Position numbers and translations under genes: made by a program
Shown here: positions 505 to 49,316 of the stretch, piece after piece
How positions within the stretch are numbered: position 1 is the stretch's first letter
Layout of the letters: each line of letters begins with the position of its first letter
Notes under the pieces: model-generated
Databases searched by the model: none
The model's input: the letters and a program-made list of their open reading frames with translations, nothing else
Told to the model about the DNA's origin: nothing
NCBI GenBank assembly: GCA_030672385.1
Contig: DAOVGN010000066.1
Span: forward strand, 1-49,316
Origin: Deltaproteobacteria bacterium
Lineage (GTDB): Bacteria > Desulfobacterota > B13-G15 > RBG-16-54-18
Direction of reading: 5' to 3'
Length of the DNA stretch: 49,316 bases

Positions 505-579
505 GGGCGGTTAACTCAGCGGGAGAGTGCTACCTTCACACGGTAGAAGTCACTGGTTCAAATCCAGTACCGCCCACCA
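505..579 (+). tRNA. tRNA-Val (anticodon CAC), CCA encoded
   Basis: Folded by hand. Acceptor stem 505-511/569-575 (7 bp), D stem 514-517/525-528, anticodon stem 530-534/542-546. The anticodon loop is TTCACAC with CAC at 537-539. T stem 552-556/564-568 with TTCAAAT loop, discriminator A576, CCA at 577-579. Confidence 0.93.
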
Positions 580-15871: not shown

Positions 15872-16137
15872 ATGCATGGTTGATCGTCGGCTTTGGGGGA
15901 CAAATCTGCTTTTTTATGAGGTTCCTGGTCCAGTGGATCGCCTCGGAGAAGAAGGGAAAGAGCGTCATCCCCATCTATTTTTGGTACCTCAGCCTCTTAG
16001 GAGGCTTGACTCTCTTGACCTACGCCATCCATATCAAAGATCCCGTCTTCATCGTGGGGCAGAGTATGGGGGCATTCATTTATATACGGAACTTGATGTT
16101 GATCTACAAAAACAGAAAAGAAGTGGTTGAGGTCTGA
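15868..16137 (+). CDS. lipid-A-disaccharide-synthase N-terminal (LAB_N) domain small membrane protein
   Basis: 89 aa with 3 TM segments. GFGGQICFFMRFLVQWIASEKKGKSVIP..FWYLSLLGG is characteristic. 4-nt overlap with the GT2 gene. Confidence 0.8.
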   Translation: MNAWLIVGFGGQICFFMRFLVQWIASEKKGKSVIPIYFWYLSLLGGLTLLTYAIHIKDPVFIVGQSMGAFIYIRNLMLIYKNRKEVVEV

Positions 16138-16207
16138 GAGGTAATGGCTGGCAAACCGTTTTTTTGATCAGGTATATAGAATATTAAAAAAAATCAATTC
16201 ATCATCA

Positions 16208-16708
16208 TTGAATGGGCTTGAAGTCGGTTGTGGTAAAGGATATTTGCTTTCCAGGCTTTATAAAAAAGGCGCTGTTGGCCGTATGGCCGCAATTGAGATA
16301 GATGCAAAGTGGATAAAATATGCAAAAACATATCACCCTGTTTGCAGTTATTTCATGTCAGACGTATATAAGCTAAATTTTAAGGCAAAATCATTTGATT
16401 ATATTATTGCAACAGAAATTCTTGAACATTTAACTGATCCTGTTGCAGCGATTAAGGAAATCAGGCGAGTTTCTAAAATCAATGCTGCTATTATTATCTC
16501 TGTCCCTTTTGAGCCGTTTTTTCACTGGAGTAATTTGTTAAGGGGAAAACATTTAAAAAGATTGGGGCGAACTCCTGAACATGTAAATTTCTGGAGTAGA
16601 GGAGAAATAAAAACTCTGCTAAGTGAATTTATTGAAATTGAAGAGGAATATTATTTGTCAACATTTCCCTGGCTGTTATTCCATGGCAGATTTAAGCCAG
16701 GAAACTAA
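16208..16708 (+). CDS. class I SAM-dependent methyltransferase (5' end apparently frameshifted; see findings)
   Basis: Motif I LEVGCGKGYL sits at residues 4-13 of the track ORF, which has a TTG start. Post-I acidic motif IEID and later motif IIATEILEHL. Low-GC gene. Confidence 0.75.
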   Translation: MNGLEVGCGKGYLLSRLYKKGAVGRMAAIEIDAKWIKYAKTYHPVCSYFMSDVYKLNFKAKSFDYIIATEILEHLTDPVAAIKEIRRVSKINAAIIISVPFEPFFHWSNLLRGKHLKRLGRTPEHVNFWSRGEIKTLLSEFIEIEEEYYLSTFPWLLFHGRFKPGN

Positions 16709-16714
16709 TATACA

Positions 16715-18169
16715 TTGAACATTAATATGAAACATTCTGTTGTATTGATTAATCCTCCTTTTAGTCTTGAGGACCGGTATGGAAAGGATATGAAACAGTT
16801 CGGCGCTGTAACTGAGCCCCTGGGGCTTGCCTATATCGCTGGTTACCTTGTTTCAAAAAATATTTTAGTCAGAATTATTGACGCTCCAGCAGAAAACCTG
16901 GCAGGAGATGATATTATTAAAAGCATATTGACACAAGCAGAAGAGATTATTGAAATTTCAATGCTGACACCGTCATTTGGCGTTGTTAGGAATCTGTGCA
17001 AAAAAATAAAACATGTATTTCCGGATTGCATGGTTGTTCTGGGTGGTCCACATTGCATTGCACTGCCGGAGCAGACACTTCAGGAGATTCCTGAAGCAGA
17101 CATTGTCTGCACTGGAGAAGGCGAAAAGACCATGGCTGAGATTGCAGAAAAAGATAAAAATTCAGATTTCGGAAGTATTAAAGGGATTTGCTATCGAAGC
17201 GGGGATAAAATTTTAAGAACTGAGGAGAGACCATATATAAGGGAATTGGATACAATCCCGCCGCCTGCGCGTCATCTTTTGCCCATGGAGAAATACCATT
17301 TAACTGCATCCCGTGTGGAAGGTGACTCATACTGCCCGACAATTATTGTTGCAAGGGGGTGCCCGTTTTCATGCACATACTGTTCCAGGACTTTTGGGCG
17401 AACATTCCGTGCCCACAGTGTCAAGAGAATTGTTGAAGAGATCCAGTCACTTGTCGATATGTATCAGATTTCCCAGATAAATATTGAAGCAGACACCTTG
17501 ACTGCGAAAAAGAAATTCATAAAGGAACTCTGTAATGCTCTTATAGATAGTGGTGTTAGTAAAAAAATCAAGTGGACCTGTGAGAGCCGGGTAGATACTG
17601 TTAATGAAGAAATCCTGAGACTAATGCGGAAGGCTGGATGCTGGCAGATAAGTTACGGTGTTGAAACTGGGAGTCAGCGTCTACTAGACCTGATAAACAA
17701 ATCTGTAACACTTAAACAGATAGAGGATACTTTTAAAATAACCAAAAGGGCTGGGATAACCATTCGAGGTTTTTTTATGTTGGGACTGCCGACTGAAACA
17801 AGAGAGGAAAGCATTGCCACCATAGCATTTGCAAGAAAGCTGGATCCTCTGTGGGCTCAGTTTACAATAACAGTTCCATATCCTGGAACAGTAATGTTTG
17901 ACGAACTTGACAGAGCAGGGCAGATAAAGTCATATGATTGGAGCAGTTATAATACATGGTCAGGTTGGAAAGGTGATGGTGTGATGCCTTTTATTGCTGA
18001 AGGAAGGTCGATTGAGGAACTTGCCAGCCTTCAGAAAATGGCATTAAGGAAATTCTATCTCCGGCCTTCTGTAGTGGTTCGGTTCCTTTCAACAGTCAAA
18101 TCTTTTCATGATTTGAAAAAATATTTTATTGGATTCCGGGTGTTGATAAAAAGCAGGCTGGCGAGATAA
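16715..18169 (+). CDS. B12-binding domain-containing radical SAM protein
   Basis: 484 aa. The N-terminal cobalamin-binding-like domain is VVLINPPF...PLGLAYIAGYL. Radical SAM motif RGCPFSCTYCS. An alternative ATG start is at 16727. Low-GC gene. Confidence 0.85.
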   Translation: MNINMKHSVVLINPPFSLEDRYGKDMKQFGAVTEPLGLAYIAGYLVSKNILVRIIDAPAENLAGDDIIKSILTQAEEIIEISMLTPSFGVVRNLCKKIKHVFPDCMVVLGGPHCIALPEQTLQEIPEADIVCTGEGEKTMAEIAEKDKNSDFGSIKGICYRSGDKILRTEERPYIRELDTIPPPARHLLPMEKYHLTASRVEGDSYCPTIIVARGCPFSCTYCSRTFGRTFRAHSVKRIVEEIQSLVDMYQISQINIEADTLTAKKKFIKELCNALIDSGVSKKIKWTCESRVDTVNEEILRLMRKAGCWQISYGVETGSQRLLDLINKSVTLKQIEDTFKITKRAGITIRGFFMLGLPTETREESIATIAFARKLDPLWAQFTITVPYPGTVMFDELDRAGQIKSYDWSSYNTWSGWKGDGVMPFIAEGRSIEELASLQKMALRKFYLRPSVVVRFLSTVKSFHDLKKYFIGFRVLIKSRLAR

Positions 18170-39707: not shown

Positions 39708-40082
39708 TTATCCTGTCTGCCTGGGTAACAAAACGGTGAAGGTAGTTGACTTTCCTTCTTCGCTCTCCACCGATATGGAACCGAGATGGGCCTCTACAAT
39801 GCCCTTGACGATGGAAAGACCTAAACCCGTCCCTACAACCCCCCTGGTCCTCTCTGACTTTACTCGGTAGAATTTGTCAAAGATCATGGGCAGATCTTCC
39901 TTGGGAATACCGATGCCGGTATCCGCCACCACCGTCTTAATGTAGTCTACTTCGGTCCCCACCTCTACCCTCACCTCACCACCTGCGGGTGTATATTTTA
40001 TGCCATTGTTCACAAAGATGATGGAGATAACCTCCACCAGATCGGAATCATCATCTACGATTAAGATCTTCGGAATAATGAT
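39708..40082 (-). pseudogene. chimeric remnant: receiver-domain N-terminus fused to the C-terminal two-thirds of a histidine-kinase ATPase domain
   Basis: AAGGAGG is followed by ATC ATT ATT CCG AAG..., with no ATG/GTG/TTG at the expected start. The frame reads IPKILIVDDDSDLVEVISIIF (REC start), then directly VNNGIKYTPAGGEVRV...DTGIGIP...GTGLGLSIV (N, G1 and G2 boxes). The REC body, DHp domain and H-box are missing. The track ORF starts at internal GTG 40037. Confidence 0.55.
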
Positions 40083-40100: not shown

Positions 40101-41024
40101 TTATAGCACGGACCTTGGGAGCAGGCCTGCTGCTTCAACAATCTCCTGCACCTTATGTTCCCATTCAATGGCCATGAGGTGGATGCCAGAAAGCCCCTCT
40201 ATTTCCCTGAGTTCTTGAATTTGTTCGCATGTTATCTTTATGCCCTCAGAGGCAACCTTTTCTTTTCCTGCTCCCTTTAATCGGTCTATAATTTCTTCCG
40301 GGATGATAATCCCACTGACATTAGCAGCCATATAACGGGCCATACCTACAGATTTGAGTGGTGTGATACCAGCTAAGATCTTACATTTTTCATGCAACCC
40401 CATATCTACCACCTGCTTCATAAATTCTTTAAATCGCTTCATATCATAGATACATTGAGTTTGTATAAAGTCAACCCCGGCTTCTATCTTTTTGGCAAGT
40501 CTGTGAACCCTATACTGAAATGGATCGGCAAAGGGGTTAGATGCCGCCCCGATAAACATCTTGAAGTCGCCTTCTATCTCATCTCCACAGATAACCTTAT
40601 GCTCGTCCCTCATGGTTTTGACCATATGGATCATCTGAATGGAGTCTATATCAAAAACATTCTTTGCCTCAGGGTGATTTCCAAATGATTGATGGTCGCC
40701 GGAAAGGCAGAGCATATTTTTGATTCCAAGGGCAGATGCACCAAAGAGATCAGACATTATGGCTAGTCTATTGCGATCCCTGGCTACCATCTGCATGGTC
40801 GGTTCCAGGCCTTCATCGATCAATATCTTGGACGTAGCAATCGATGACATCCTAACAATGGCTGTCTGGTTATCGGTAATGTTGACTGCATCTACATTGC
40901 CCTTGAGCATGGCTGCCTTTTTTTTAACCACTTCTACATCCGTACCCTTTGGAGGCCCCAACTCGCCGGTAATAACAAATTCACCCTTTTCTAACAGCCC
41001 TTCGAGGTTACTTCCAGATTTCAT
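40101..41024 (-). CDS. metF: methylenetetrahydrofolate reductase, acetogen/sulfate-reducer type
   Basis: 307 aa. FVITGELGPPKG, AVNITDNQ and LCLSGDH motifs. 4-nt overlap with metV. Confidence 0.88.
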   Translation of the reverse strand: MKSGSNLEGLLEKGEFVITGELGPPKGTDVEVVKKKAAMLKGNVDAVNITDNQTAIVRMSSIATSKILIDEGLEPTMQMVARDRNRLAIMSDLFGASALGIKNMLCLSGDHQSFGNHPEAKNVFDIDSIQMIHMVKTMRDEHKVICGDEIEGDFKMFIGAASNPFADPFQYRVHRLAKKIEAGVDFIQTQCIYDMKRFKEFMKQVVDMGLHEKCKILAGITPLKSVGMARYMAANVSGIIIPEEIIDRLKGAGKEKVASEGIKITCEQIQELREIEGLSGIHLMAIEWEHKVQEIVEAAGLLPRSVL

Positions 41025-41713
41025 AACCTAAGATCCTCCCTTACCATCCTTCTTGGGCCACCACTGTGACTCGGTCTCCAGTCTTTGTACTTTTCAACTG
41101 GTTTAATTCGTTCCAGTTCCCCCAGAGCCTCGAGCCGTTCGATAATGAGATGCCACGCACAATCAGTATCCTTATTAATCTCGCATTTTCCATTAGACGA
41201 GCCACCGCATGGACCATTAAGGAGGCTTTTAGCGCACCTGGTAATAGGACAGATACCACCTGTCCTTTCCAGGACACAATCTCCACATCCAAGACAGCGT
41301 TCTTCCCACAGGCCAACATCTATATTGGCACCCATAAAGGTAGTGTTTAACCCTGGAATTACTCGTATAGGTTTCTCCGTGATGATGCGGTTAAAATAGT
41401 TACAGGAATGTTGAACTCCTACCCCACAGGCTATGGATAGTACGACATCAGCCTCTTTTACCTTTTCCAGAAACGCCGTATCGGACATAAACTCATCATC
41501 ACACTGGCGAATTACGATTTCGTCATTGACTTCAACCTTTTTCCCCTCATTGCCAAATGCCAGCTTCAACTCCGATGCCAAAATTTCCGCCTCTTTCTCA
41601 CCCCCTGCCTGGCAGATGGCTACACAGGTCTCACAGCCCAAGACCATGATCTTATTATAATCCTTTACCGATTCCTTGATCTCCTCAAAAGGCTTTCTAT
41701 CTGCTATGATCAT
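41021..41713 (-). CDS. metV: MetV, methylene-THF reductase C-terminal-domain (Cys-rich) subunit
   Basis: 230 aa. CLGCGDCVLERTGGICPITRCAKSLLNGPCGGSSNGKCE...CAW is the MTHFR_C-type Cys pattern. Confidence 0.85.
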   Translation of the reverse strand: MIIADRKPFEEIKESVKDYNKIMVLGCETCVAICQAGGEKEAEILASELKLAFGNEGKKVEVNDEIVIRQCDDEFMSDTAFLEKVKEADVVLSIACGVGVQHSCNYFNRIITEKPIRVIPGLNTTFMGANIDVGLWEERCLGCGDCVLERTGGICPITRCAKSLLNGPCGGSSNGKCEINKDTDCAWHLIIERLEALGELERIKPVEKYKDWRPSHSGGPRRMVREDLRL

Positions 41714-41716
41714 AAA

Positions 41717-42160
41717 TTACTCCTTGTCTTTTTCACTCTCTTGCTGGAGGTTGATCCTATATGGATTGGGTCCTAGCTTTTTAGCACGCTCGGTCATCGT
41801 TTTTACCGTTTCTGCAAACATGGGTGCTTCGGAAGCTGCGATATGAAAAAAGTCGAGCCGTTCACTCCCTAACCCGATCTCATCTAACAGCTTCTTGGTA
41901 TATTCAACCCTTTTCAAGGCCCTTAAATTTCCCTCCAGGAAATTACATGTGCCAGGCTCTCATCCCCCTACGAATATGGCGTCTGCCCCCGCCTCAAAGG
42001 CCTTTAAGATGTGGACAATCTCTACCTTGCCCGTACATAGATAGTAGACTATGCGGACATTAGTGGGATACTGAATCCTTCCAACACCTGCTAAATCAGC
42101 AGCACTGTAGGCGCAGTAATTACAGAGCATGGCCACCACTCTCGGTTCATAATCTCCCAT
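41717..42160 (-). CDS. mvhD: MvhD/FlpD-family [2Fe-2S] electron-transfer subunit, predicted selenoprotein (in-frame UGA at 41962-41960)
   Basis: Track ORFs 41960..42160 and 41717..41917 are in the same frame, separated only by TGA plus 14 sense codons. The joined product is ...VAMLCNYCAYSAADLAGVGRIQYPTNVRIV..CTGKV...ILKAFEAGADAIFVGG-U-EPGTCNFLEGN...RLDFFHIAASE. The TGA sits where MvhD proteins have the first Cys of G-C-x4-C-H/N-Y/F-x2-G-N. Confidence 0.8.
41926..41944 (-). promoter_or_regulatory. candidate bacterial SECIS hairpin downstream of the mvhD UGA
   Basis: On the mRNA strand: AAUUUCC, loop UGGAG, GGAAAUU (7 bp). The loop begins 23 nt after the UGA and is G-rich, which fits bacterial SECIS geometry. 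The stem is AU-rich and short. Confidence 0.4.
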
Positions 42161-42179
42161 TTCTCATTCCCCTTCTTGC

Positions 42180-42287
42180 GTTCATTGAGTTTGTTGGGTT
42201 TGCCTGCTTTGTTAAATCCCCTGCAGGGGCGTCGCCAAGGGCGACATTTAACAGAGTGAATGTTAAAATCCTATGAACTCAATGAAC
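42180..42287. repeat. 108-nt nested palindromic element in the hdrL-mvhD intergenic region
   Basis: The outer 12-bp perfect inverted repeat is GTTCATTGAGTT (42180-42191) and AACTCAATGAAC (42276-42287). The inner 7-bp inverted repeat is GTTAAAT (42211-17) and ATTTAAC (42246-52). The inner repeat encloses two hairpins: CCCC-TGCA-GGGG (42218-29) and GTCGCC-AAG-GGCGAC (42231-45). Confidence 0.8.
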
Positions 42288-42306
42288 AAAATAAACACAA
42301 CAAACA

Positions 42307-45300
42307 CTAATATATGGCCATCAATTTAGGAATTATCTGGCTGTCTTTATAATGCCTTACCTGGATTGCATCATTAGGACACATGGAGGCGCAAATACCA
42401 CATCCCTGGCAGGCTCCCGGGTCGATCTTTGCTACTGCATTTTCATAATCGATCTGGGGCACTCCAAAGGGGCATACCCTGATACAGGTCAAACAAATAG
42501 CACAAAGGTCAGGGTCTACCTCAGCAACAGCTCCACCCACCATCATCTCTTTGTGGGAGATAATAGTACATGCCCTGGAGACTGTCGCTTTTGCCTGGGA
42601 AATGGCTTCATCAATGGCTTTTGGTCCATGGGCCAATCCACAAACAAACATCCCCGCGGAAGCAAACTCTACAGGCCTCAGCTTTGCATGGGCCTCCATG
42701 AAGAAGCCATCCTGATTCATAGCCACCTTAAAGAACTCGGAAAATACACTGTTATCATCGCGCGGTACGATAGCCGAAGCCAGGATTATAATATCGGTAT
42801 CTATCTCCACAGGCCTCTTAATTACCTGATCCTTAACAGTCACCCTGAGCCTGCCATCTCTTTTTTCAACCTTTGGTTTGTCTTCGGTATCATAACGGAT
42901 AAACCGAACACCCTTTAATCGTGCCTCTCTGTATAAATCCTCCCTTTCTCCGTAGGTTCTTATATCCCGGTAAAGGATATAGATATCCATATCAGGGTTT
43001 AATTTCTTGAGGGTCAATGCACTATGGATAGAATGGGTGCAACATACCTTGCTGCAATAGGGTCTGTCTGGCTCCCTGGAGCCAACACACTGGATAAAAA
43101 CAGCGGTGTTTGTCTGTTTTAGCTTGTCTGCATTTTGCATAATCTCCTGATCCATATCCAGAGATAGTAAGATATTGGGGTCTTCTCCATAGAGATACTC
43201 TTCAGGCTCATAACTCTCTGCCCCATTGGCAACAATAGCTGCGCCATAACTCACCTCTGTCTCTTTGCCCTGGGCATCAGTCAATTTGCATCTAAAATTT
43301 CCTATAGTGCCATGTACCTCCTTGATCTCGGTCTGCATATGCACATCAATCAGAGGATTTTCAGTAACCTTTTTAACCATCTCTTCAAGATAAGGCTGTA
43401 TCTCTTCATCCTTCCATGTGGTATGTAATCTAAGGGCTTGGCCGCCCAGTTTATCCTCCCTCTCTATCAAATAGGTCTTAAATCCTTGTTCGGCTAATCC
43501 CAAAGCTGCCGTCATCCCGGCCACACCCCCGCCGACTACCAGGGCCTCCTGACAGATTGTCTGGGGGACCTCATAAAGCTGCTCCAGTGTCGCAGCCCTT
43601 GCTACTGCCATACGCACCAAATCCTTGGCCTTTTCCGTAGCCTTCTCAGGCTCACCCATGTGAACCCATGTGCATTGATCCCGGATATTTGCCATCTCAA
43701 AAAGATACTGGTTAAGGCCGGCTTCCCTGCATGTCTCTCTGAATAATACCTCATGTGTTCTTGGTGTACATGAGGCTACCACTATTCTATTAAGAAGCTT
43801 TTCTTGGATGACCTCCTTCATCTTTACCTGTGTATCTTCTGAACACGTGAAGAGATTAGCCTCTGCATATTCCACATGGGGAAGTGTTTTGGCATATTCC
43901 ACGATCGCCGGGACGTCAGCTACGCCACCTATGTTTATACCGCAATGGCAGATAAAGACACCAATCCTTATAGGCTCTTTACTGACATCCCGTTCAGGCG
44001 GATACTCCTTTGTTTTGATCCTGGTTCCCCTTGCTTCTGCAAGGGCAGAGGTAGCCGAGGCCGCAGCAGCACTGGCCTGGGCAACTGTGTCGGGTATATC
44101 CTTGGGGGCCTCAAATACACCACATGTATAGACCCCCTGCCTTGATGTCGTAACCGGTTCAAAACTACTGGTGTCCACGAAATTGTAATGGTCCAAGTCA
44201 ATACCGATTTTTTTAGCCAAATCAAGGGATCCCTGAGAAATATCAAGCCCTATAGATAAAACTACTATGTCAAAGTCTTCTTGAACCAGTCTTCCAGCCT
44301 CATCTGTATATCTAATTTTGAGGTTTCCAGGCTCGTCACCTGGCAATACATTGTTTATCTTCGACTTTATAAAACGAATCCCTACTTCATCCTTGGCCCT
44401 GTTATAATATCTCTCAAACTCCTTACCATATGTGCGTATATCTATGTAAAAAATAGCTGTATCTAATGGTTCAGGAGAGTGTTCCTTGGCTATCATGGCC
44501 TGCTTTATGGCATAGGTGCAACAGACGCCAGAACAATAACCTTTATCTCCAACTTGAGTATTCCTTGAACCCACACATTGTATCCATGCAATTTTTTTTG
44601 GTTCCTTGTGGTCCGCCGGTCTAACCAGATGACCTTCAAAAGGTCCGGATGCGCTCAAGATTCGTTCAAATTCCAGACTGGTTAAAATGTTTGGATTTTC
44701 AGAATAGCCGTATGTGTCATGATGCCCTGGATCAAATGGGGTAAAACCGGGAGCAAGTATAATGGATCCCACATCTATGGTGTGTTCCTGCGGGATCATG
44801 GTATGATCTATTGCGCCGGCCAGGCAGGCAGAGATACACTGATAACATTCAGAGCAGATCCCACATTTCAGGCAGCGTTGGACCTCGGCCCTTGCCTCCC
44901 CTTCTGTAAACCCCAGAGCTATTTCCTTGAAGCTGCCCTCTCGCTCCTCAAGGGATATCTTCCGCATGGGAGTCCTGGGCAGATGGGGTTCCCCTTCTAT
45001 ATCGGGCTTTTCATAGGACCAATCCTGCTCTCTTCCCTCCTTGAGATCCATGCCGTTCAGATATCGTTGGATGCTCTCAGCCGCCTCTTTCCCACAGGCA
45101 ACAGCCTCAACCACAGACTTTGGCCCATAAAAGGCATCCCCACCTGCAAAGACCCATTCTATTTCTGTCTGAAACGTAACAGGGTCAGCCTCTAAACCTC
45201 TTTTAAATGAGATACCCTCTTTTTCAGCAAAAGAGAGATCAGCGCCCTGTCCGATTGCAACAATTACTGTATCAGCATCCATACTGCTCAAGTCTGTCTC

Positions 45301-46731
45301 GTCATATTGGGGATTGAAGGCCCCTTTTTCGTCGAATACAGCGGTACAGCGCTTGAATTCTATACCCGATAGTTTTCCATCCTTTTTAAGAAAACGTTTG
45401 GGCCCAAGGCTATTGACGATTGTTATTCCCTCTTCAAGGGCCTCTTCAATCTCATAATCCCAGGCCGGCATCTCATCTCTTTTCTCGAGGCATACTAAAA
45501 TTAGCTCCTTAGCCCCTACACGCTTGGCCGTGAGGGCCACATCAATGGCCACATTACCACCACCGATAATAACTGTCTTTTCCCCAACGCTGACCTGATT
45601 CCTAAGGGCCACATCCCTCAAGAAATCAATTCCCTTGATCACTTCAGGAAGGTCTTCTCCTTCCACACGCAACATCAGACTCAGATGGAGACCGGTTGCT
45701 AAAAACAGGGCCTTATAGCCATCCTTTTTAAGGTTATCAAGGGTTATATCTTCACCAAAAGTAACCCCTGTCTTTATCTCAACACCCATATCCTGAATGA
45801 CCTTGACCTCAGCAGCGATTATTTCTCTTGGCAGACGATACTCTGGAATCCCAACGGCCATCATACCGCCTATAACGGAAAGCTTTTCAAATACCGTTAC
45901 CTGGTAACCCTCTTTTACCAAACAATAGGCTGCTGCCAAACCAGCAGGTCCTGAACCGATAATGGCCACTTTCTCTTCTCTTTTATCCTCCACCTCCGGA
46001 ACATACGGGGTCTCACTTGATAGGTCCATATCAGCCAGGAACCAGTGGAGATACTGTATAGAAAGGGGCTCATCCAGATCGCTCCGGGTACAGATCTCCT
46101 CACATGGATGATGGCAGATCCGACCGCATATACCAGGGAAAGGATGTTCCTCTTTAAAGACTTCCAGGGCCTCTCGATATTTGCCCTGGTTTATCAATGC
46201 GATAAAGCCCTGAATGCTTACATGGGCAGGACAGGTGGCCTTACATGGGGCCGTGCCTCTCTTTTCAATTGCAAAGGCACCGGGCATGGCTTGAGGATAG
46301 AGCTTATAAGCAGCTTTTCGATCGCATAACCCCTGATCAAATAGGGAGGGTATGCTAATAGGGCATACCTTTTCGCACTCACCGCAGGCCGTACACTTTG
46401 CCATATCAATATAGCGAGGATGTTCTAAGAGTTTTACCTGGAAATTCCCAGGCTCACCAGTGATATCCATTACATCAGTTAAGGGTAGTATCTCGATATT
46501 CAGATGTCGGCCACATTCCACCAGTTTTGGACCCATAATGCACATAGAGCAATCATTTGTTGGAAATGTCTTATCTAACTGTGCCATCCTGCCGCCAATA
46601 GCGGAATTTTTTTCAACCAGGTATACATAAAAGCCAGAATCTGCGAGGTCAAGGGCAGCCTGCATCCCACCGATACCACCACCTACGACCATCACTGCCC
46701 CAATCTTATCTTTTGCGATCTCTTCTTCCAT
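42307..46731 (-). CDS. hdrL: giant HdrA-like flavoprotein (HdrL type): two HdrA modules with an inserted NfnB/GltD-like NAD(P)H oxidoreductase module
   Basis: 1474 aa.
- Module 1: VVGGGIGGMQAALDLA...FPTNDCSMC...CTACGECEKVCP.
- GltD/NfnB-like part: CKATCPAH...CGRICHHPCEEICTR, IIGSGPAGLAAAYCL, IIGGGNVAIDVA, FAGGDA.
- HdrA core: IQCVGSRN...YCSGVCC.
- Module 2: VVGGGVAGMTAALGLA, IQCVGSRE...YCSKVCC.
- C-terminal 2x[4Fe-4S] ferredoxin: CAICLTCIRVCP...CQGCGICASMCP. Confidence 0.85.
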   Translation of the reverse strand: MEEEIAKDKIGAVMVVGGGIGGMQAALDLADSGFYVYLVEKNSAIGGRMAQLDKTFPTNDCSMCIMGPKLVECGRHLNIEILPLTDVMDITGEPGNFQVKLLEHPRYIDMAKCTACGECEKVCPISIPSLFDQGLCDRKAAYKLYPQAMPGAFAIEKRGTAPCKATCPAHVSIQGFIALINQGKYREALEVFKEEHPFPGICGRICHHPCEEICTRSDLDEPLSIQYLHWFLADMDLSSETPYVPEVEDKREEKVAIIGSGPAGLAAAYCLVKEGYQVTVFEKLSVIGGMMAVGIPEYRLPREIIAAEVKVIQDMGVEIKTGVTFGEDITLDNLKKDGYKALFLATGLHLSLMLRVEGEDLPEVIKGIDFLRDVALRNQVSVGEKTVIIGGGNVAIDVALTAKRVGAKELILVCLEKRDEMPAWDYEIEEALEEGITIVNSLGPKRFLKKDGKLSGIEFKRCTAVFDEKGAFNPQYDETDLSSMDADTVIVAIGQGADLSFAEKEGISFKRGLEADPVTFQTEIEWVFAGGDAFYGPKSVVEAVACGKEAAESIQRYLNGMDLKEGREQDWSYEKPDIEGEPHLPRTPMRKISLEEREGSFKEIALGFTEGEARAEVQRCLKCGICSECYQCISACLAGAIDHTMIPQEHTIDVGSIILAPGFTPFDPGHHDTYGYSENPNILTSLEFERILSASGPFEGHLVRPADHKEPKKIAWIQCVGSRNTQVGDKGYCSGVCCTYAIKQAMIAKEHSPEPLDTAIFYIDIRTYGKEFERYYNRAKDEVGIRFIKSKINNVLPGDEPGNLKIRYTDEAGRLVQEDFDIVVLSIGLDISQGSLDLAKKIGIDLDHYNFVDTSSFEPVTTSRQGVYTCGVFEAPKDIPDTVAQASAAAASATSALAEARGTRIKTKEYPPERDVSKEPIRIGVFICHCGINIGGVADVPAIVEYAKTLPHVEYAEANLFTCSEDTQVKMKEVIQEKLLNRIVVASCTPRTHEVLFRETCREAGLNQYLFEMANIRDQCTWVHMGEPEKATEKAKDLVRMAVARAATLEQLYEVPQTICQEALVVGGGVAGMTAALGLAEQGFKTYLIEREDKLGGQALRLHTTWKDEEIQPYLEEMVKKVTENPLIDVHMQTEIKEVHGTIGNFRCKLTDAQGKETEVSYGAAIVANGAESYEPEEYLYGEDPNILLSLDMDQEIMQNADKLKQTNTAVFIQCVGSREPDRPYCSKVCCTHSIHSALTLKKLNPDMDIYILYRDIRTYGEREDLYREARLKGVRFIRYDTEDKPKVEKRDGRLRVTVKDQVIKRPVEIDTDIIILASAIVPRDDNSVFSEFFKVAMNQDGFFMEAHAKLRPVEFASAGMFVCGLAHGPKAIDEAISQAKATVSRACTIISHKEMMVGGAVAEVDPDLCAICLTCIRVCPFGVPQIDYENAVAKIDPGACQGCGICASMCPNDAIQVRHYKDSQIIPKLMAIY

Positions 46732-46742
46732 TGAGGTTCTCC

Positions 46743-47615
46743 CTACTCAGATAAAAATCCCTTTATTGAGGTTATATCCATCTGATTCATTCCCAATCCT
46801 AATGTATCCCTATCAATACCCAAGCTCAATCCAAGAAGCTGTGGATATAAAATAGAGGGGAGATGATGGTTCCCACCCCGTTTGGCGAGGATCATCTTTT
46901 GAACCGTATCAAACTGGATCTGGCAGTATGGACAGGCAGTACAGAGATAATCAGCACCAGATTTCTTCCCGTCCGACAGTTTTTTTTCGGTCAAGTCCAT
47001 CGATAGATCATCATTTATTCCCCACAATGGGGCACCGCAACATTCAAGTTGAGTCGGCCAATAGATACTTTTGGCACCAGTGATCTCAACGAGTTGATCA
47101 AATATAGATGGGGCCACCGGATCATCAAATTGGACTATTTGGCTTGGGCGCAAGACATGGCAGCCATAGTGGGTAGCAATCTTAAGGTCCGAAAAGGTCT
47201 TCTCTATCTTCTCTTTTATAGGCTCAATACCTACATCATGGTAGAGGGCATAAAGAAAATGTTTGACTTCAATATCTCCCTCATATTTCAAACCTTCTCT
47301 GTTCAGAATGGTATTAATCTCTTGCCTTAAGGAAACATCTTCCTTCAAAAGATAAGCTACCTTCTTGAGGCTGCCGTAGCAGCATTTACAGAGAACCATC
47401 ACGTTCAGGTCCTCCCTTTCAGCCAGGGCGAGATTTCTGGCTGAAGAGAGAACAAATGCCTTAAAGTCGAGGTTCCTTAAGGGATATCCGCAGCAATTGA
47501 ATTCCCTTATATCCACCAAACCTACACCGAGTTTTCCTAAAATCGCCCTTGCTGAGGATTCGTATTGTTCAAGACGGGCCGGAATGTTGCAACCGAGAAA
47601 TAGAGCAACCTTCAT
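46743..47615 (-). CDS. hdrB: heterodisulfide reductase subunit B-like (two CCG domains)
   Basis: 290 aa. FLGCNIP...FNCCGYP and a second ECCGAPL...CPYC. 4-nt overlap with the upstream gene. Confidence 0.88.
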   Translation of the reverse strand: MKVALFLGCNIPARLEQYESSARAILGKLGVGLVDIREFNCCGYPLRNLDFKAFVLSSARNLALAEREDLNVMVLCKCCYGSLKKVAYLLKEDVSLRQEINTILNREGLKYEGDIEVKHFLYALYHDVGIEPIKEKIEKTFSDLKIATHYGCHVLRPSQIVQFDDPVAPSIFDQLVEITGAKSIYWPTQLECCGAPLWGINDDLSMDLTEKKLSDGKKSGADYLCTACPYCQIQFDTVQKMILAKRGGNHHLPSILYPQLLGLSLGIDRDTLGLGMNQMDITSIKGFLSE

Positions 47616-49316
47616 AATCTCTCTTCCATCTCCAGTGATGCCTTTTCTCTTACCTGTTTGATTGCTAAATTCTTCAGTTCATAGAGCACATCGGTAATAC
47701 ATACCCCCTGAGGACATTGTTCCTGGCACTGATAACAGGTGAGACAATCCCACAGCATATTTGAACCAAAGGCCAGATCCCTCACTCCCAATGCACAGGC
47801 GTGCATGATCTGGTGGGGCAACAGACCCAGGACCTCCTGAGGGTCTTCGTAATTGGCCACAACAGGACAGGCGTTGGTGCATGTTTGACAGCCAAAGCAA
47901 CCCGAAAAGGTGCTTGCCTGGGCTGATAAGCTTAGCCCGCTTTGAAAATCCCTATCAGCAGGGGTCAGAGGTAAGACCTTATCCGGTTCTTTCATTAACT
48001 CACACTCAGCAACAATAGCCTCTCTGGCCTTCGCTAAGGGTTTCGCATAATCCTTTTGAATTGTTTCCTCCTTCATCAAGCCCCGGTAAAAAGAGAGGGG
48101 TGAGAGAAGAAGAAACTCAGGATAACCCTCTTGCAACAAAGCCTCCTTCACGTTGAACCACAAATCCTGCAGGTTGATACCCACCGGACAGACCACAGTG
48201 CATCGATAGCAATTGGTACAGAGACAAATCCCCTCTTGAATATCCTTAAGCTCTCGCTCACTCAGTCCCCTGCCAGCAGCAAGTGCCTTTATTGAAGCTA
48301 TCTTCTCAGATGGAAGGATGTTCAGATTGGGAATTTGCTCTGAGGCGACAGCAACGGAACATCGGGATGTGCAGGTCCCACAATGGGTGCAGGCATCCAG
48401 CTCCATGACCTGCCTGGTGGCTATATTGGCTGGATCTGAGCTCTCTTTGTCCATAACAGCATTGGCCAACAGGCTCAACGGGCTGGCAACGATATGGAAC
48501 ATTTTACTAAAAGGAAGATAGGCCAAACCCAGCAAGCAGGCTATGAAATGGATATACCAGAGGAGGATAGGTATATTAACCCTGTCCAGTCCCAGGGCTA
48601 TCGGCCTGATGATCCTGGCCACCCCATAGCCGGTAAATGCCCATTGGGGGCGAGAGTGACACTCAACACAACTCATTTCATGGAGTTCCTTGCCCTGCGC
48701 CAGAGTCTGCGCATCAAACGGCCCCTTCAAACTGGGGGACACTACCCCATAGTCATCTACCCAATAGGCCTCCAAAGACCTAAGCTCGCGCTCATCATCC
48801 AGACCGGCATAGTCATCTACCATCTGCTGGTAGATTGAGTGAGATACAATCTTTGTGCCCTCCAGAGTAATTCCAGAAAAAATGATGATGGCCACAAGGA
48901 CAATAGCGTAATAATCCATGGCGTTGGTTAACAGACGAGGCACCCTCAAAATGAAACGCCGATAAACCGCAATAACCAAGCCCAAAATTACCAAGGCACC
49001 AAATAGATCCCTCAAAAACATAAACGGGTTGATGGTCGAAAAATAGTCTGGAAATAGGGCAGAGGTTACGAATCTATCCAAGGCATGCATCAGAAAAAGC
49101 AACACAAACCCACCATATATACAAATGTGCATGAGCCACCTGAGAAAGTCCTCCCTCAATATCCTTACGTTCAAAACAACATCAAGGACAAAGACCTTCA
49201 AAAGGGTAAGGATCTTTGCGCTGAATAAGGTCAATAGGATTCCTTTGAAGGCTGCAAAAACCCTTCCTAAGGCTGTGATCTCTCTGGCATCTATACCGAT
49301 TTTGTATCGAAACCAA
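47612..49316 (-). CDS. membrane-anchored HdrC-like iron-sulfur protein: NarI/DsrM/HdrE-like polytopic domain fused to two 2x[4Fe-4S] HdrC-like modules; possibly 5'-partial
   Basis: The track ORF (TTG start at 49234) is 540 aa. The same frame stays open with no stop to the window end, so the N-terminus may lie outside the window. There are at least five hydrophobic helices with conserved-looking His residues (MHICIYGG...LMHALD, WYIHFIA, FHIV). FeS motifs: CTHCGTCTSRC...CTNCYRCTVVCP and CFGCQTCTNACP...CLTCYQCQEQCP. Confidence 0.75.
   Translation of the reverse strand, partial: WFRYKIGIDAREITALGRVFAAFKGILLTLFSAKILTLLKVFVLDVVLNVRILREDFLRWLMHICIYGGFVLLFLMHALDRFVTSALFPDYFSTINPFMFLRDLFGALVILGLVIAVYRRFILRVPRLLTNAMDYYAIVLVAIIIFSGITLEGTKIVSHSIYQQMVDDYAGLDDERELRSLEAYWVDDYGVVSPSLKGPFDAQTLAQGKELHEMSCVECHSRPQWAFTGYGVARIIRPIALGLDRVNIPILLWYIHFIACLLGLAYLPFSKMFHIVASPLSLLANAVMDKESSDPANIATRQVMELDACTHCGTCTSRCSVAVASEQIPNLNILPSEKIASIKALAAGRGLSERELKDIQEGICLCTNCYRCTVVCPVGINLQDLWFNVKEALLQEGYPEFLLLSPLSFYRGLMKEETIQKDYAKPLAKAREAIVAECELMKEPDKVLPLTPADRDFQSGLSLSAQASTFSGCFGCQTCTNACPVVANYEDPQEVLGLLPHQIMHACALGVRDLAFGSNMLWDCLTCYQCQEQCPQGVCITDVLYELKNLAIKQVREKASLEMEERL

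Follow-up and report, generated by a model that had tools for sequence, protein, structure and literature searches.

A stretch of 49,316 nucleotides from a deltaproteobacterial genome assembly (GCA_030672385.1, contig DAOVGN010000066.1; this whole stretch is called the window below) ends in a group of six genes, memC-hdrB-hdrL-mvhD-metV-metF, whose products resemble the subunits of a methylene-tetrahydrofolate (methylene-THF) reductase (MTHFR) combined with a heterodisulfide reductase (Hdr)-type electron transfer system. The first of them, the anchor gene, is named memC here. An earlier reading of this DNA, made from the sequence alone, had drawn attention to the locus, and analysis of the open reading frames (ORFs) bore out its count and orientation: all six, from position 40101 to the window end, are co-directional and lie on the minus strand (Table 1). 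Two pairs of genes, memC/hdrB and metV/metF, overlap by 4 nt each (47612-47615 and 41021-41024), and gaps of 11 nt and 3 nt separate hdrB from hdrL and mvhD from metV. Such tight coupling supports the view that the genes form one operon. The sequence-only reading was right about these four junctions, but its statement that the remaining gaps all measured 3-11 nt fails between hdrL and mvhD, which are 146 nt apart. It also described the product of the first gene as if it were encoded entirely within 47612-49316. This product is indeed a fusion of membrane and iron-sulfur (Fe-S) domains, but its gene is cut by the window end: the frame is open up to base 49315 and the 5' end lies beyond the window. 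A full-length counterpart (P0001, from locus L001 of GCA_030669245.1) has 591 aa and is 99% identical to the memC product of the window, which accordingly lacks the first 24 residues, corresponding to the first transmembrane helix (TM1).

Searches with the Pfam and NCBIfam hidden Markov models assigned all six products to the expected families, in agreement with the domain identities proposed from the sequence. MetF matched PF02219 (MTHFR) with an E-value of 1.3e-41 and NF006396 with 5.5e-69, the latter alignment covering the MTHFR half of the model. MetV, with 14 cysteines, matched PF12225, the MetV C-terminal domain, at 9.2e-37; a single-sequence search of the PDB gave no relative for MetV. 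The two genes are adjacent in the window, and metV is kept beside metF in all related loci. The locus can thus be recognised as a MetVF-Hdr-MvhD cluster of the kind known from Moorella, as had been proposed. Its exact architecture, memC-hdrB-hdrL-mvhD-metV-metF, recurs on two independent sediment contigs (L095 and L087), and because the order of the genes is shared at 60-90% protein identity, the cluster is not a chance juxtaposition.

Table 1. Position and description of genes, domains and candidate functional residues of the operon (window coordinates).
Feature	Position	Strand	Description
metF	40101-41024	minus	307 aa; methylene-THF reductase, catalytic flavoprotein
metV	41021-41713	minus	230 aa; Fe-S subunit of MetVF-type MTHFR
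mvhD	41717-42160	minus	147 aa; selenocysteine at residue 67
hdrL-mvhD spacer	42161-42306	minus	146 nt; 12-bp inverted repeat with two small GC hairpins inside
hdrL	42307-46731	minus	1474 aa; Moorella-type long HdrA
HdrL insert	44767-46266	minus	residues ~156-655; GltD/NfnB-like [4Fe-4S]/FAD/NAD(P)H insert; Fer4_20, Pyr_redox_2
hdrB	46743-47615	minus	290 aa
memC (anchor gene)	47612 to window end	minus	membrane/Fe-S fusion; residues 25-591 in window
memC domain order	47612..49316	minus	NarI/EMO-type cytochrome b, then cubane 2x[4Fe-4S], then HdrC-like 2x[4Fe-4S]
Two cytoplasmic ferredoxin-like domains of memC	47693..48415	minus	16 Cys; domain 1 C333...C400, domain 2 C497...C558
Cytochrome b domain of memC	48452..49316	minus	residues 25-312; TM1 outside window
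Putative heme b ligand H298	48494-48496	minus	
Putative heme b ligand H280	48548-48550	minus	
Putative heme b ligand H101	49085-49087	minus	
Putative heme b ligand H87	49127-49129	minus	
TM4-TM5 loop core	48506..48772	minus	predicted periplasmic; W209 and C240-x-x-C243-H244 motif (48656-48670)
M189	48821-48823	minus	just upstream of loop core; invariant; candidate distal heme ligand

The membrane anchor and its predicted periplasmic loop

With an alignment of 61 diverse family members (30-59% identity), AlphaFold gave a model of the anchor with a mean predicted local distance difference test score (pLDDT) of 92 and a predicted template modelling score (pTM) of 0.88. When 41 close homologues (69-82% identity) were used, the pLDDT was only 46.8 and the model was unusable. 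Foldseek placed the good model nearest to 9OJN, the membrane EtfD/EMO protein EtfD of M. smegmatis (E = 3.1e-6); HdrC chains came next and NarI was a weak match. The family profile matched HdrC (9e-20), 9OJN (1.5e-14) and NarI (4.5e-7). A single-sequence search of the PDB gave no relative for the membrane domain.

Hydropathy, the helices of the AlphaFold model and a family-wide positive-inside charge bias together predict five helices in an N-out, C-in orientation. Averaged over the family, the net charge is +5.1 for loop 1 and +2.7 for loop 3, against -1.5 for loop 2 and -7.2 for loop 4. The hydrophobic stretch at residues 47-78 was considered as a sixth transmembrane helix but dropped, since the model resolves it into two short connecting helices, which EMO also has, and five helices agree with the charge bias. 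In a local profile alignment H280 and H298 fall on H187 and H205, the heme ligands of NarI, in an LH...PFS(K/R)xxH (PFSKxxH) motif common to both. All 61 family members have H101, H280 and H298, and 60 of them have H87; a pair of histidines on TM2 and a second pair, 18 residues apart, on TM5 are hence conserved in 60-61 of 61. The transmembrane helices and the NarI likeness were both anticipated by the sequence-only reading, which had placed the HdrC equivalent of the cluster on a NarI-type cytochrome anchor.

Pfam recognises two stretches each of Fer4_8 and Fer4_17 in the anchor. In Pfam and NCBIfam searches these appeared as two dicluster domains, and no CCG domain was found in the protein. 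The 16 Fe-S cysteines, invariant or nearly so in the 61-sequence alignment, would suffice to ligate four [4Fe-4S] clusters. Domain 1 is similar to the cubane domains found in DsrK, SdhB and EMO. Domain 2 is HdrC-like: residues 472-554 match TIGR03290 (HdrC) at 7.6e-21, HdrC chains in the PDB match at 3e-12, and residues 497-577 are 31% identical to the HdrC of a soluble cluster (L121, described below). Model and sequence thus present the anchor as an HdrC equivalent fused to a polytopic cytochrome b domain of the predicted NarI type. As the cluster contains no further hdrC gene, this membrane protein is the sole HdrC-like partner encoded there for HdrB and HdrA.

A resemblance to DsrMK and HmcEF, which had also been suggested from the sequence, turned out to be an analogy only. 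The anchor scored far under the NCBIfam cut-offs for DsrK (28 bits, cut-off 400), HmcF (31, cut-off 750), TmcB (24, cut-off 735) and TmcC (19, cut-off 240), and the qmoC model matched its HdrC-like domain only (7.5e-20; 71.7 bits, cut-off 300). By these scores and by its domain order the protein is neither a DsrM/DsrK nor an HmcEF, TmcBC or QmoC.

Three features had been overlooked in the sequence-only reading: the selenocysteine codon of mvhD, whose ORF is interrupted by a TGA, the wide spread of the module, and a periplasmic CxxCH motif in the anchor. The last is found in the loop between TM4 and TM5, which has about 90 residues, exceeds the corresponding NarI loop by some 60, aligns nearly without gaps throughout the family and carries a net negative charge family-wide. 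C240, C243 and H244, together with M189 and W209, occur in 61 of the 61 sequences. CxxCH on the periplasmic side is the signature of a covalent c-type heme, and the loop is probably a c-type heme site; a weak profile match (E 0.012) relates this stretch to the heme subunits of flavocytochrome c. By analogy, a heme c at this point may face periplasmic partners, or it could belong to the quinone site, given that the distal site of EMO can hold an unusual second heme.

If the heme faced the periplasm, the anchor might serve mainly as a wire to periplasmic c-type cytochromes, in the manner of Tmc and Hmc, and not as a quinone oxidoreductase. The loop heme c would then exchange electrons with a periplasmic cytochrome pool (hydrogenase, formate dehydrogenase, extracellular or interspecies transfer), and THF chemistry would be coupled to the periplasm. 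The invariance of CxxCH, M189 and W209, the fixed length of the loop, its nature as an insertion relative to NarI and its faint likeness to flavocytochrome c all speak in favour of such a wire. So does the periplasmic position of the loop, for which charge bias, homology to NarI and EMO and the need for cytoplasmic Fe-S domains argue. There is also a precedent: in Tmc and Hmc a NarI-like cytochrome b, a CCG protein and periplasmic heme c proteins occur together. However, heme attachment at CxxCH is itself only predicted, and a single heme c beside the distal heme b fits a quinone site equally well (compare the twin-heme of EMO with its second, stacked heme). Moreover, the cluster has no cytochrome c gene, and it is the quinone-linked hypothesis that has biochemical support in other organisms. 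We consider a wire of this kind unlikely.

A further proposal, possible although we hold it to be doubtful, is that the anchor is a tri-heme (b, b, c) transmembrane module, with a covalent heme c on the periplasmic loop beside the distal heme b, which in the sister loci described below would do for formate dehydrogenase what it does here for MetVF. If so, one-carbon (C1) metabolism in uncultured sediment Desulfobacterota would be directly connected to electron transfer in the periplasm or outside the cell, and the type of membrane partner missing from the type IV MTHFRs would have been identified. The conserved CxxCH was unexpected, and the covalent heme that it predicts is a concrete feature that can be tested cheaply.

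HdrB, HdrL and MvhD

HdrB matched PF02754 (CCG) in two stretches (3.5e-22) and TIGR03288 with 4.5e-74, at 249 bits against an equivalog cut-off of 345. The cysteines of its CCG motifs are all present (C9/C41/C42/C76/C79 and C152/C192/C193/C225/C228(/C231)), and the two motifs are predicted to bind two non-cubane [4Fe-4S] clusters. The same clusters constitute the heterodisulfide site in HdrABC and HdrDE, and both complete motifs have been kept; it might therefore be thought that the anchor and HdrB form a disulfide reductase like DsrMK or HdrDE. The HdrB clusters would then be catalytic on a disulfide or trisulfide such as DsrC, with electrons from menaquinol and/or from methyl-THF via MetVF-MvhD-HdrL, and the MTHFR would have a thiol/disulfide couple instead of quinone as its second partner. 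This would find a task for HdrB, which is otherwise a side branch in the wiring that we propose below, and would suit hosts that belong to the Desulfobacterota, many of which are sulfate-reducing. A dithiol co-reductant was also weighed by Kremp et al. (PMC9430772). On the other hand, neither dsrC nor any other thiol-carrier gene is present in the cluster or the scanned regions of the window, non-cubane clusters merely relay electrons in EMO and related enzymes, and dihydrolipoate and glutathione were without effect in S. ovata. The DsrK, HmcF and TmcB scores given above point the same way. A disulfide reductase is, in our judgement, quite improbable.

HdrL consists of HdrA segments at residues 1-155 and 628-915 and, starting near residue 915, a full HdrA module. 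The GltD/NfnB-like insert interrupts its N-terminal thioredoxin reductase (TrxR)-like FAD domain and contains the dinucleotide motifs GSGPAG259 and GGGNVA390. In the sequence-only reading HdrL was a second departure from the Moorella system. This proved to be wrong, and we dropped HdrL as a novelty. The HdrA of M. thermoacetica (162.8 kDa, 1487 aa) has at its N-terminus an extra ferredoxin domain and a TrxR-like domain interrupted by GltD, and its residues 922-1487 are like methanogen HdrA without the inserted ferredoxin domain (PMC9430772); it thus has the GltD insert and the two TrxR-like domains of HdrL and lacks, like HdrL, that ferredoxin domain. The layout is found again in the soluble cluster L121, which reads HdrC (185 aa)-HdrB (284 aa)-HdrA (1503 aa, GltD type)-MvhD-MetV-MetF and whose HdrA aligns with HdrL from end to end (residues 8-1473) at 47% identity. 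Since the order of genes in L121 is that of the window, with the 591-aa cytochrome-fused protein replacing HdrC, the first gene is the only real difference from the reference system. A branch to a low-potential carrier, also predicted from the sequence, is not evident. The C-terminal HdrA module of HdrL is without the 75-residue inserted ferredoxin domain, which binds ferredoxin in methanogen HdrA, and the alignment skips from chain residue 243 to 319.

Compared with E356/K409 of M. thermolithotrophicus HdrA, HdrL has kept the bifurcation signature at its N-terminal flavin site (E689/K743, encoded at 44665-44667 and 44503-44505). The C-terminal flavin site has D1194/H1236 (43150-43152 and 43024-43026) where bifurcating HdrA has Glu/Lys. 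The Moorella enzyme has E/K at 696/750, nearly the same residue numbers as the first site of HdrL, and again at 1204/1246 (PMC9430772); the HdrA of S. ovata is like HdrL in that its C-terminal flavin site is without the signature. Almost all related loci have E/K at the N-terminal site; only L110-L114 and L136 differ (D/E with R). At the C-terminal site most anchor-linked HdrAs have Asp and a variable residue, whereas soluble Moorella-like clusters keep Glu/Lys. The idea that loss of the C-terminal E/K tracks the presence of the anchor was nevertheless rejected as imperfect, because anchor-bearing metVF loci without GltD retain this pair.

MvhD matched FlpD in Pfam (1.3e-44) and VhuD in NCBIfam (2.7e-48). 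Its gene has an in-frame TGA at 41960-41962 (minus strand), corresponding to residue 67 in the motif VGG-U-EPGTC. At the aligned position TGA occurs 28 times and Cys 13 times in related loci, and this alternation marks the TGA as a selenocysteine (Sec) codon. The assignment is based on the Sec/Cys pattern and on a hairpin that starts 18 nt 3' of the TGA; no Rfam model of a selenocysteine insertion sequence (SECIS) matched mvhD, and Rfam found no other RNA family in the operon. In six anchor-linked metVF loci from the genome scan (L026, L030, L043, L074, L077 and L079) MvhD has Cys and not Sec.

The spacer between hdrL and mvhD is structured. The arms of its inverted repeat are GTTCATTGAGTT...AACTCAATGAAC, its short hairpin motif is unique in the window, and its fold energy is -40.6 kcal/mol (z = -1.9). 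A scan of the spacer revealed neither a terminator-like T-run nor a minus-strand promoter match. It might act in processing or stability and so keep Hdr and MvhD-MetVF at different levels. The fact that it lies exactly at the hdrL/mvhD junction might also be taken to mean that the cluster consists of two separate halves, memC-hdrB(-hdrL) encoding an oxidoreductase between NAD(P)H (or another donor) and quinone and mvhD-metVF an independent MTHFR downstream. It would fit this that the module has different partners elsewhere and that memC-hdrB-hdrA-mvhD occurs without any substrate module in Desulfosalsimonas propionicica (see below). Nevertheless, in related loci mvhD always accompanies hdrA, not metVF; the order hdrA-mvhD-metV-metF is identical in soluble clusters, and a hexameric complex has been demonstrated for the MetVF-HdrCBA-MvhD arrangement of Moorella. 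The conservation of the arrangement at 60-90% identity and the want of a terminator or promoter match in the spacer also argue for a single unit, and we regard two independent enzymes as very improbable.

Distribution of the module and its partners

A homology search with the anchor yielded more than 2,900 matches, the best 120 of which were all at least 69% identical. Its membrane domain was matched by 732 clusters at 50% identity, nearly all of them 550-600 aa long, and the source annotations of some homologues read 'heterodisulfide reductase subunit C/nitrate reductase gamma subunit'. The anchor-HdrB pair is present in at least 464 GTDB species genomes. The best-matching relatives are metagenome-assembled genomes (MAGs) of Desulfobacterota from the Desulfobacterales, the Syntrophobacterales/Syntrophaceae and the Desulfatiglandales.

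Gene neighbourhoods were surveyed from the side of the anchor (81 loci, from the best 80 of the 464 memC-positive GTDB genomes) and from the side of MetV (metagenome contigs). memC is followed by hdrB in 66 of the 70 loci with enough sequence, and in most of them hdrA-mvhD comes next. Among the 35 loci with at least 7.5 kb downstream, mvhD is present in 28 and a GltD-type HdrA in 2; an Fe-S protein and a selenocysteine formate dehydrogenase follow in 13, and metV-metF in 4. L077, with a shorter flank, is a fifth case of the latter kind, the loci with metVF after the anchor module being L026, L030, L043, L077 and L079. A survey of this sort had been proposed together with the sequence-only reading, and its outcome is that the anchor recurs with metVF while the module itself is widespread and stands more often with formate dehydrogenase. 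The hdrB type of the window is also seen at the contig edge in L090, L107 and L108, and in L109 and L069 the genes run metV-metF-metF2-memC-hdrB. The more distant MetV relatives, about 52% identical, come from soluble clusters of the Moorella kind, in which the anchor is absent.

A second MetF paralogue, without a MetV, lies directly upstream of memC in eight loci of the anchor-side survey. The paralogue has 289 aa, about 33% identity to the MetF of the operon and a match to PF02219 at 1.5e-24 (for example at L026 3494-4363); upstream of the anchor it was also seen in L030, L039, L041, L043, L069, L077, L079, L096, L100, L109 and L116.

The arrangement with formate dehydrogenase is found in many Syntrophaceae/Syntrophobacterales MAGs, where anchor-hdrB-hdrA-mvhD(Sec) is followed by a 264-aa Fe-S protein and the Sec formate dehydrogenase (L007 16364-19238; also L004, L008, L010-L014, L016, L019, L034, L037, L038 and L045). 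This gene order points to a membrane-anchored Hdr-formate dehydrogenase complex in these organisms, of which we found no description in the literature. Only two cultured isolates among those surveyed have the anchor, and metVF adjoins the module in neither. In Desulfarculus baarsii (L082, CP002085.1 870747-892420) memC-hdrB lies near a sigma-54 regulator, NuoE/NuoF-like genes and a gene for an 810-aa HdrA/MvhD fusion. Desulfosalsimonas propionicica (L138) has memC-hdrB-hdrA-Sec-mvhD only. No etf genes were seen at the window locus or at the related loci inspected. Judging from these gene orders, anchor-HdrB-HdrA-MvhD is a platform that takes different substrate modules, of which MetVF is one and formate dehydrogenase the commoner. 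The locus thereby defines a widespread and undescribed membrane module, present in at least the number of species genomes given above, that would serve formate dehydrogenase and MTHFR in sediment and syntrophic Desulfobacterota.

Downstream of metF there are an orphan HATPase_c fragment, ndk, a thioesterase gene, a GMP-synthase-like gene and DUF1385, none of which is related to C1 or redox metabolism. The fragment is a 109-aa ORF with a GTG start (39708-40037, minus strand), 63 nt downstream of metF; it contains a histidine-kinase HATPase_c domain only, as would be expected of a remnant or of a sensor kinase gene whose start has been misplaced. Its start is overlapped by a weak hairpin of terminator type at 40019-40039. 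On the other side, the 99%-identical relative L001 carries at 1-825, on the same strand and ending 190 nt upstream of memC, a short MetE-like methionine synthase homologue (PRK00957, 4e-13; no Pfam match). Its product is possibly a methyltransferase using methyl-THF beside the MTHFR operon, a context that favours the MTHFR reading given below. Elsewhere in the window, positions 16001-18000 have a G+C content of 0.40, compared with 0.45-0.57 in the remainder, and may be foreign or otherwise atypical DNA, and a tRNA gene at 505-576 (plus strand; RF00005, 66.9 bits) is the only above-threshold Rfam match.

Proposed electron path and relation to known systems

We think it reasonably likely that the operon encodes a type IV (Moorella/Sporomusa-type) MetVF-MvhD-HdrA-HdrB-HdrC MTHFR in which a NarI/EMO-type di-heme cytochrome b, fused to HdrC, holds this subunit permanently at the membrane. 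It is from gene content, domains, topology, conserved ligand residues and conserved synteny that we infer the formation of a complex, the binding of heme and quinone, the path of the electrons and the stoichiometry. In HdrABC, HdrC passes electrons between the HdrA flavin and HdrB, and in methanogens MvhD is the entry point for electrons from hydrogenase. Because the HdrC-like domain of the anchor is joined covalently, via the cubane domain, to a cytochrome b, the HdrC branch should lead to the membrane; the cytochrome b on HdrC is in this respect a piece of Rosetta-stone evidence for the whole HdrCB branch. By elimination, MetVF would then dock on the MvhD side, as the position of mvhD immediately before metV and the role of MvhD in methanogens likewise suggest.

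In the reading that we favour, MetF (flavin) and MetV (Fe-S) would trade electrons with MvhD, a [2Fe-2S] protein in which Sec replaces one Cys of the cluster region, and MvhD would in turn be linked to the HdrA portion of HdrL. NAD(P)H would bind at the GltD-like module of the latter, and the electrons would be split or merged at the N-terminal flavin site, where the E/K signature is kept. Within the anchor they would travel through the HdrC-like domain and the additional cubane domain to the heme b on the cytoplasmic side, from which they would reach the heme b on the periplasmic side and menaquinone (MK); the c-type heme of the loop may join in this transfer. The net reaction would be reversible:

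2 methyl-THF + NAD(P)+ + MK <-> 2 methylene-THF + NAD(P)H + MKH2

With literature values for E0' of -200, -320 and -74 mV, the mean potential of the acceptors is -197 mV, so that the reaction would lie near equilibrium and suit the Wood-Ljungdahl pathway in either direction. The module therefore bears on how this pathway may be operated reversibly near thermodynamic equilibrium. If the quinone site faces the periplasm, like those of NarI and EMO, running the reaction reductively would help to build the proton-motive force and running it oxidatively would consume it.

Several points weigh against this proposal. Taken by itself, the window protein misses the Pfam threshold for NarI (PF02665; 21.4 bits against 22.9), although many of its homologues carry a precomputed match to this family. 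If HdrC relays electrons to the membrane, the non-cubane clusters of HdrB form a side branch without an assigned role. With D/H in place of E/K at the C-terminal site of HdrL, one flavin, the other or neither may bifurcate. The conserved CxxCH suggests a partner other than, or besides, quinone, and the two sides of the structured 146-nt spacer, hdrL and mvhD-metVF, could differ in expression. The module also exists without MetVF (with formate dehydrogenase in 13 of 35 loci, with NuoEF-like genes in D. baarsii and alone in D. propionicica), which makes the MTHFR link one option among others.

What makes the proposal attractive is that the gene fusion provides the membrane link which biochemists have postulated for type IV MTHFR but never identified. 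No second redox partner has yet been established for the Moorella enzyme. The MetVF-HdrCBA-MvhD enzyme of S. ovata is associated with the membrane, and its integral partner 'could not be identified' (Kremp 2022, PMC9430772). MTHFR activity with quinone analogues has been measured in membranes of T. phaeum, and confurcation of menaquinol (MQH2) and NADH was proposed for M. thermoacetica, again in 2026. Coupling of MTHFR to quinone and NADH is already a published hypothesis for these three organisms, although one without an identified anchor. For the fused anchor, a full-text literature search, outside whose coverage were Pereira 2011 and Appel 2021, found no description together with MetVF. HdrC fused to a NarI-type cytochrome with a periplasmic CxxCH, serving a MetVF-Hdr complex, is thus apparently new as far as our searches reach, and with it a long-debated hypothesis of membrane coupling becomes testable.

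In kind, the system has known relatives both among the type IV MTHFRs and among the membrane Hdr-like anchors (EMO, HdrDE, QmoC, DsrMK). The former (Mock 2014; Kremp 2022, PMC9430772) have the same six functions, in the order hdrC-hdrB-hdrA-mvhD-metV-metF. They differ in having a small soluble HdrC, whose counterpart in the window is the C-terminal part of a 591-aa polytopic protein. To this the window adds the five-helix cytochrome b, the extra cubane domain and the periplasmic CxxCH loop, and its MvhD has selenocysteine. The class II benzoyl-CoA reductase BamBCDEFGHI of Geobacter metallireducens offers a parallel for several of the soluble components, with a tandem-HdrA BamE, a Sec-MvhD-like BamF and the CCG protein BamD; the portion of the source covered describes it as membrane-associated, with a proposed link to menaquinone and NAD+. 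Bam has a tungsten catalytic subunit (BamB) and an NAD module that is NuoEFG-like, not GltD-like, and the text covered reports no fused cytochrome b-HdrC anchor.

In the membrane domain, the anchor agrees with the NarI family (including DsrM, HdrE, HmcE and TmcC) in the five-helix fold, the LH...PFS(K/R)xxH motif on TM5, two histidines on TM2 and the N-out/C-in topology. Its TM2 histidines are 14 residues apart, compared with 10 in NarI, and unlike NarI it has the insertion of about 60 residues with CxxCH in the TM4-TM5 loop and fused Fe-S domains. QmoABC likewise uses HdrA-like flavoproteins and a fusion of HdrC and cytochrome b to link menaquinone to a soluble cytoplasmic reductase, AprAB, where the window would have MetVF. 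However, the domain order of QmoC is the opposite one, with Fe-S first and the membrane part last, and Qmo is without HdrB, MvhD and the GltD module, all of which are encoded in the window.

The nearest relatives of the anchor are the EMO/EtfD/HdrF proteins (EMO of S. aciditrophicus, EtfD of M. smegmatis, 9OJN, and HdrF of D. autotrophicum, PMC2702500), in which a NarI-like heme b domain is likewise followed by an HdrC-like cubane domain. Cryo-electron microscopy of EMO showed that its NarI-HdrC-HdrB chain transfers electrons between cytoplasmic donors and methylmenaquinone (bioRxiv 10.64898/2026.08.18.745454). EMO shares with the anchor the five helices, the periplasmic N-terminus, the 18-residue spacing of the TM5 histidines and a non-cubane partner of the HdrB type, and its relay between a cytoplasmic flavoprotein system and menaquinone is what we propose for the window. 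In EMO, however, the HdrB-like domain is part of the same chain, whereas the anchor is fused to a second HdrC-like domain instead and HdrB has a gene of its own. The partner of EMO is EtfAB, and those encoded in the window are HdrA(L)-MvhD-MetVF. The distal site of EMO accommodates a stacked twin heme b that has a single His ligand; the anchor has two conserved histidines there, together with a CxxCH insertion that has not been described for EMO.

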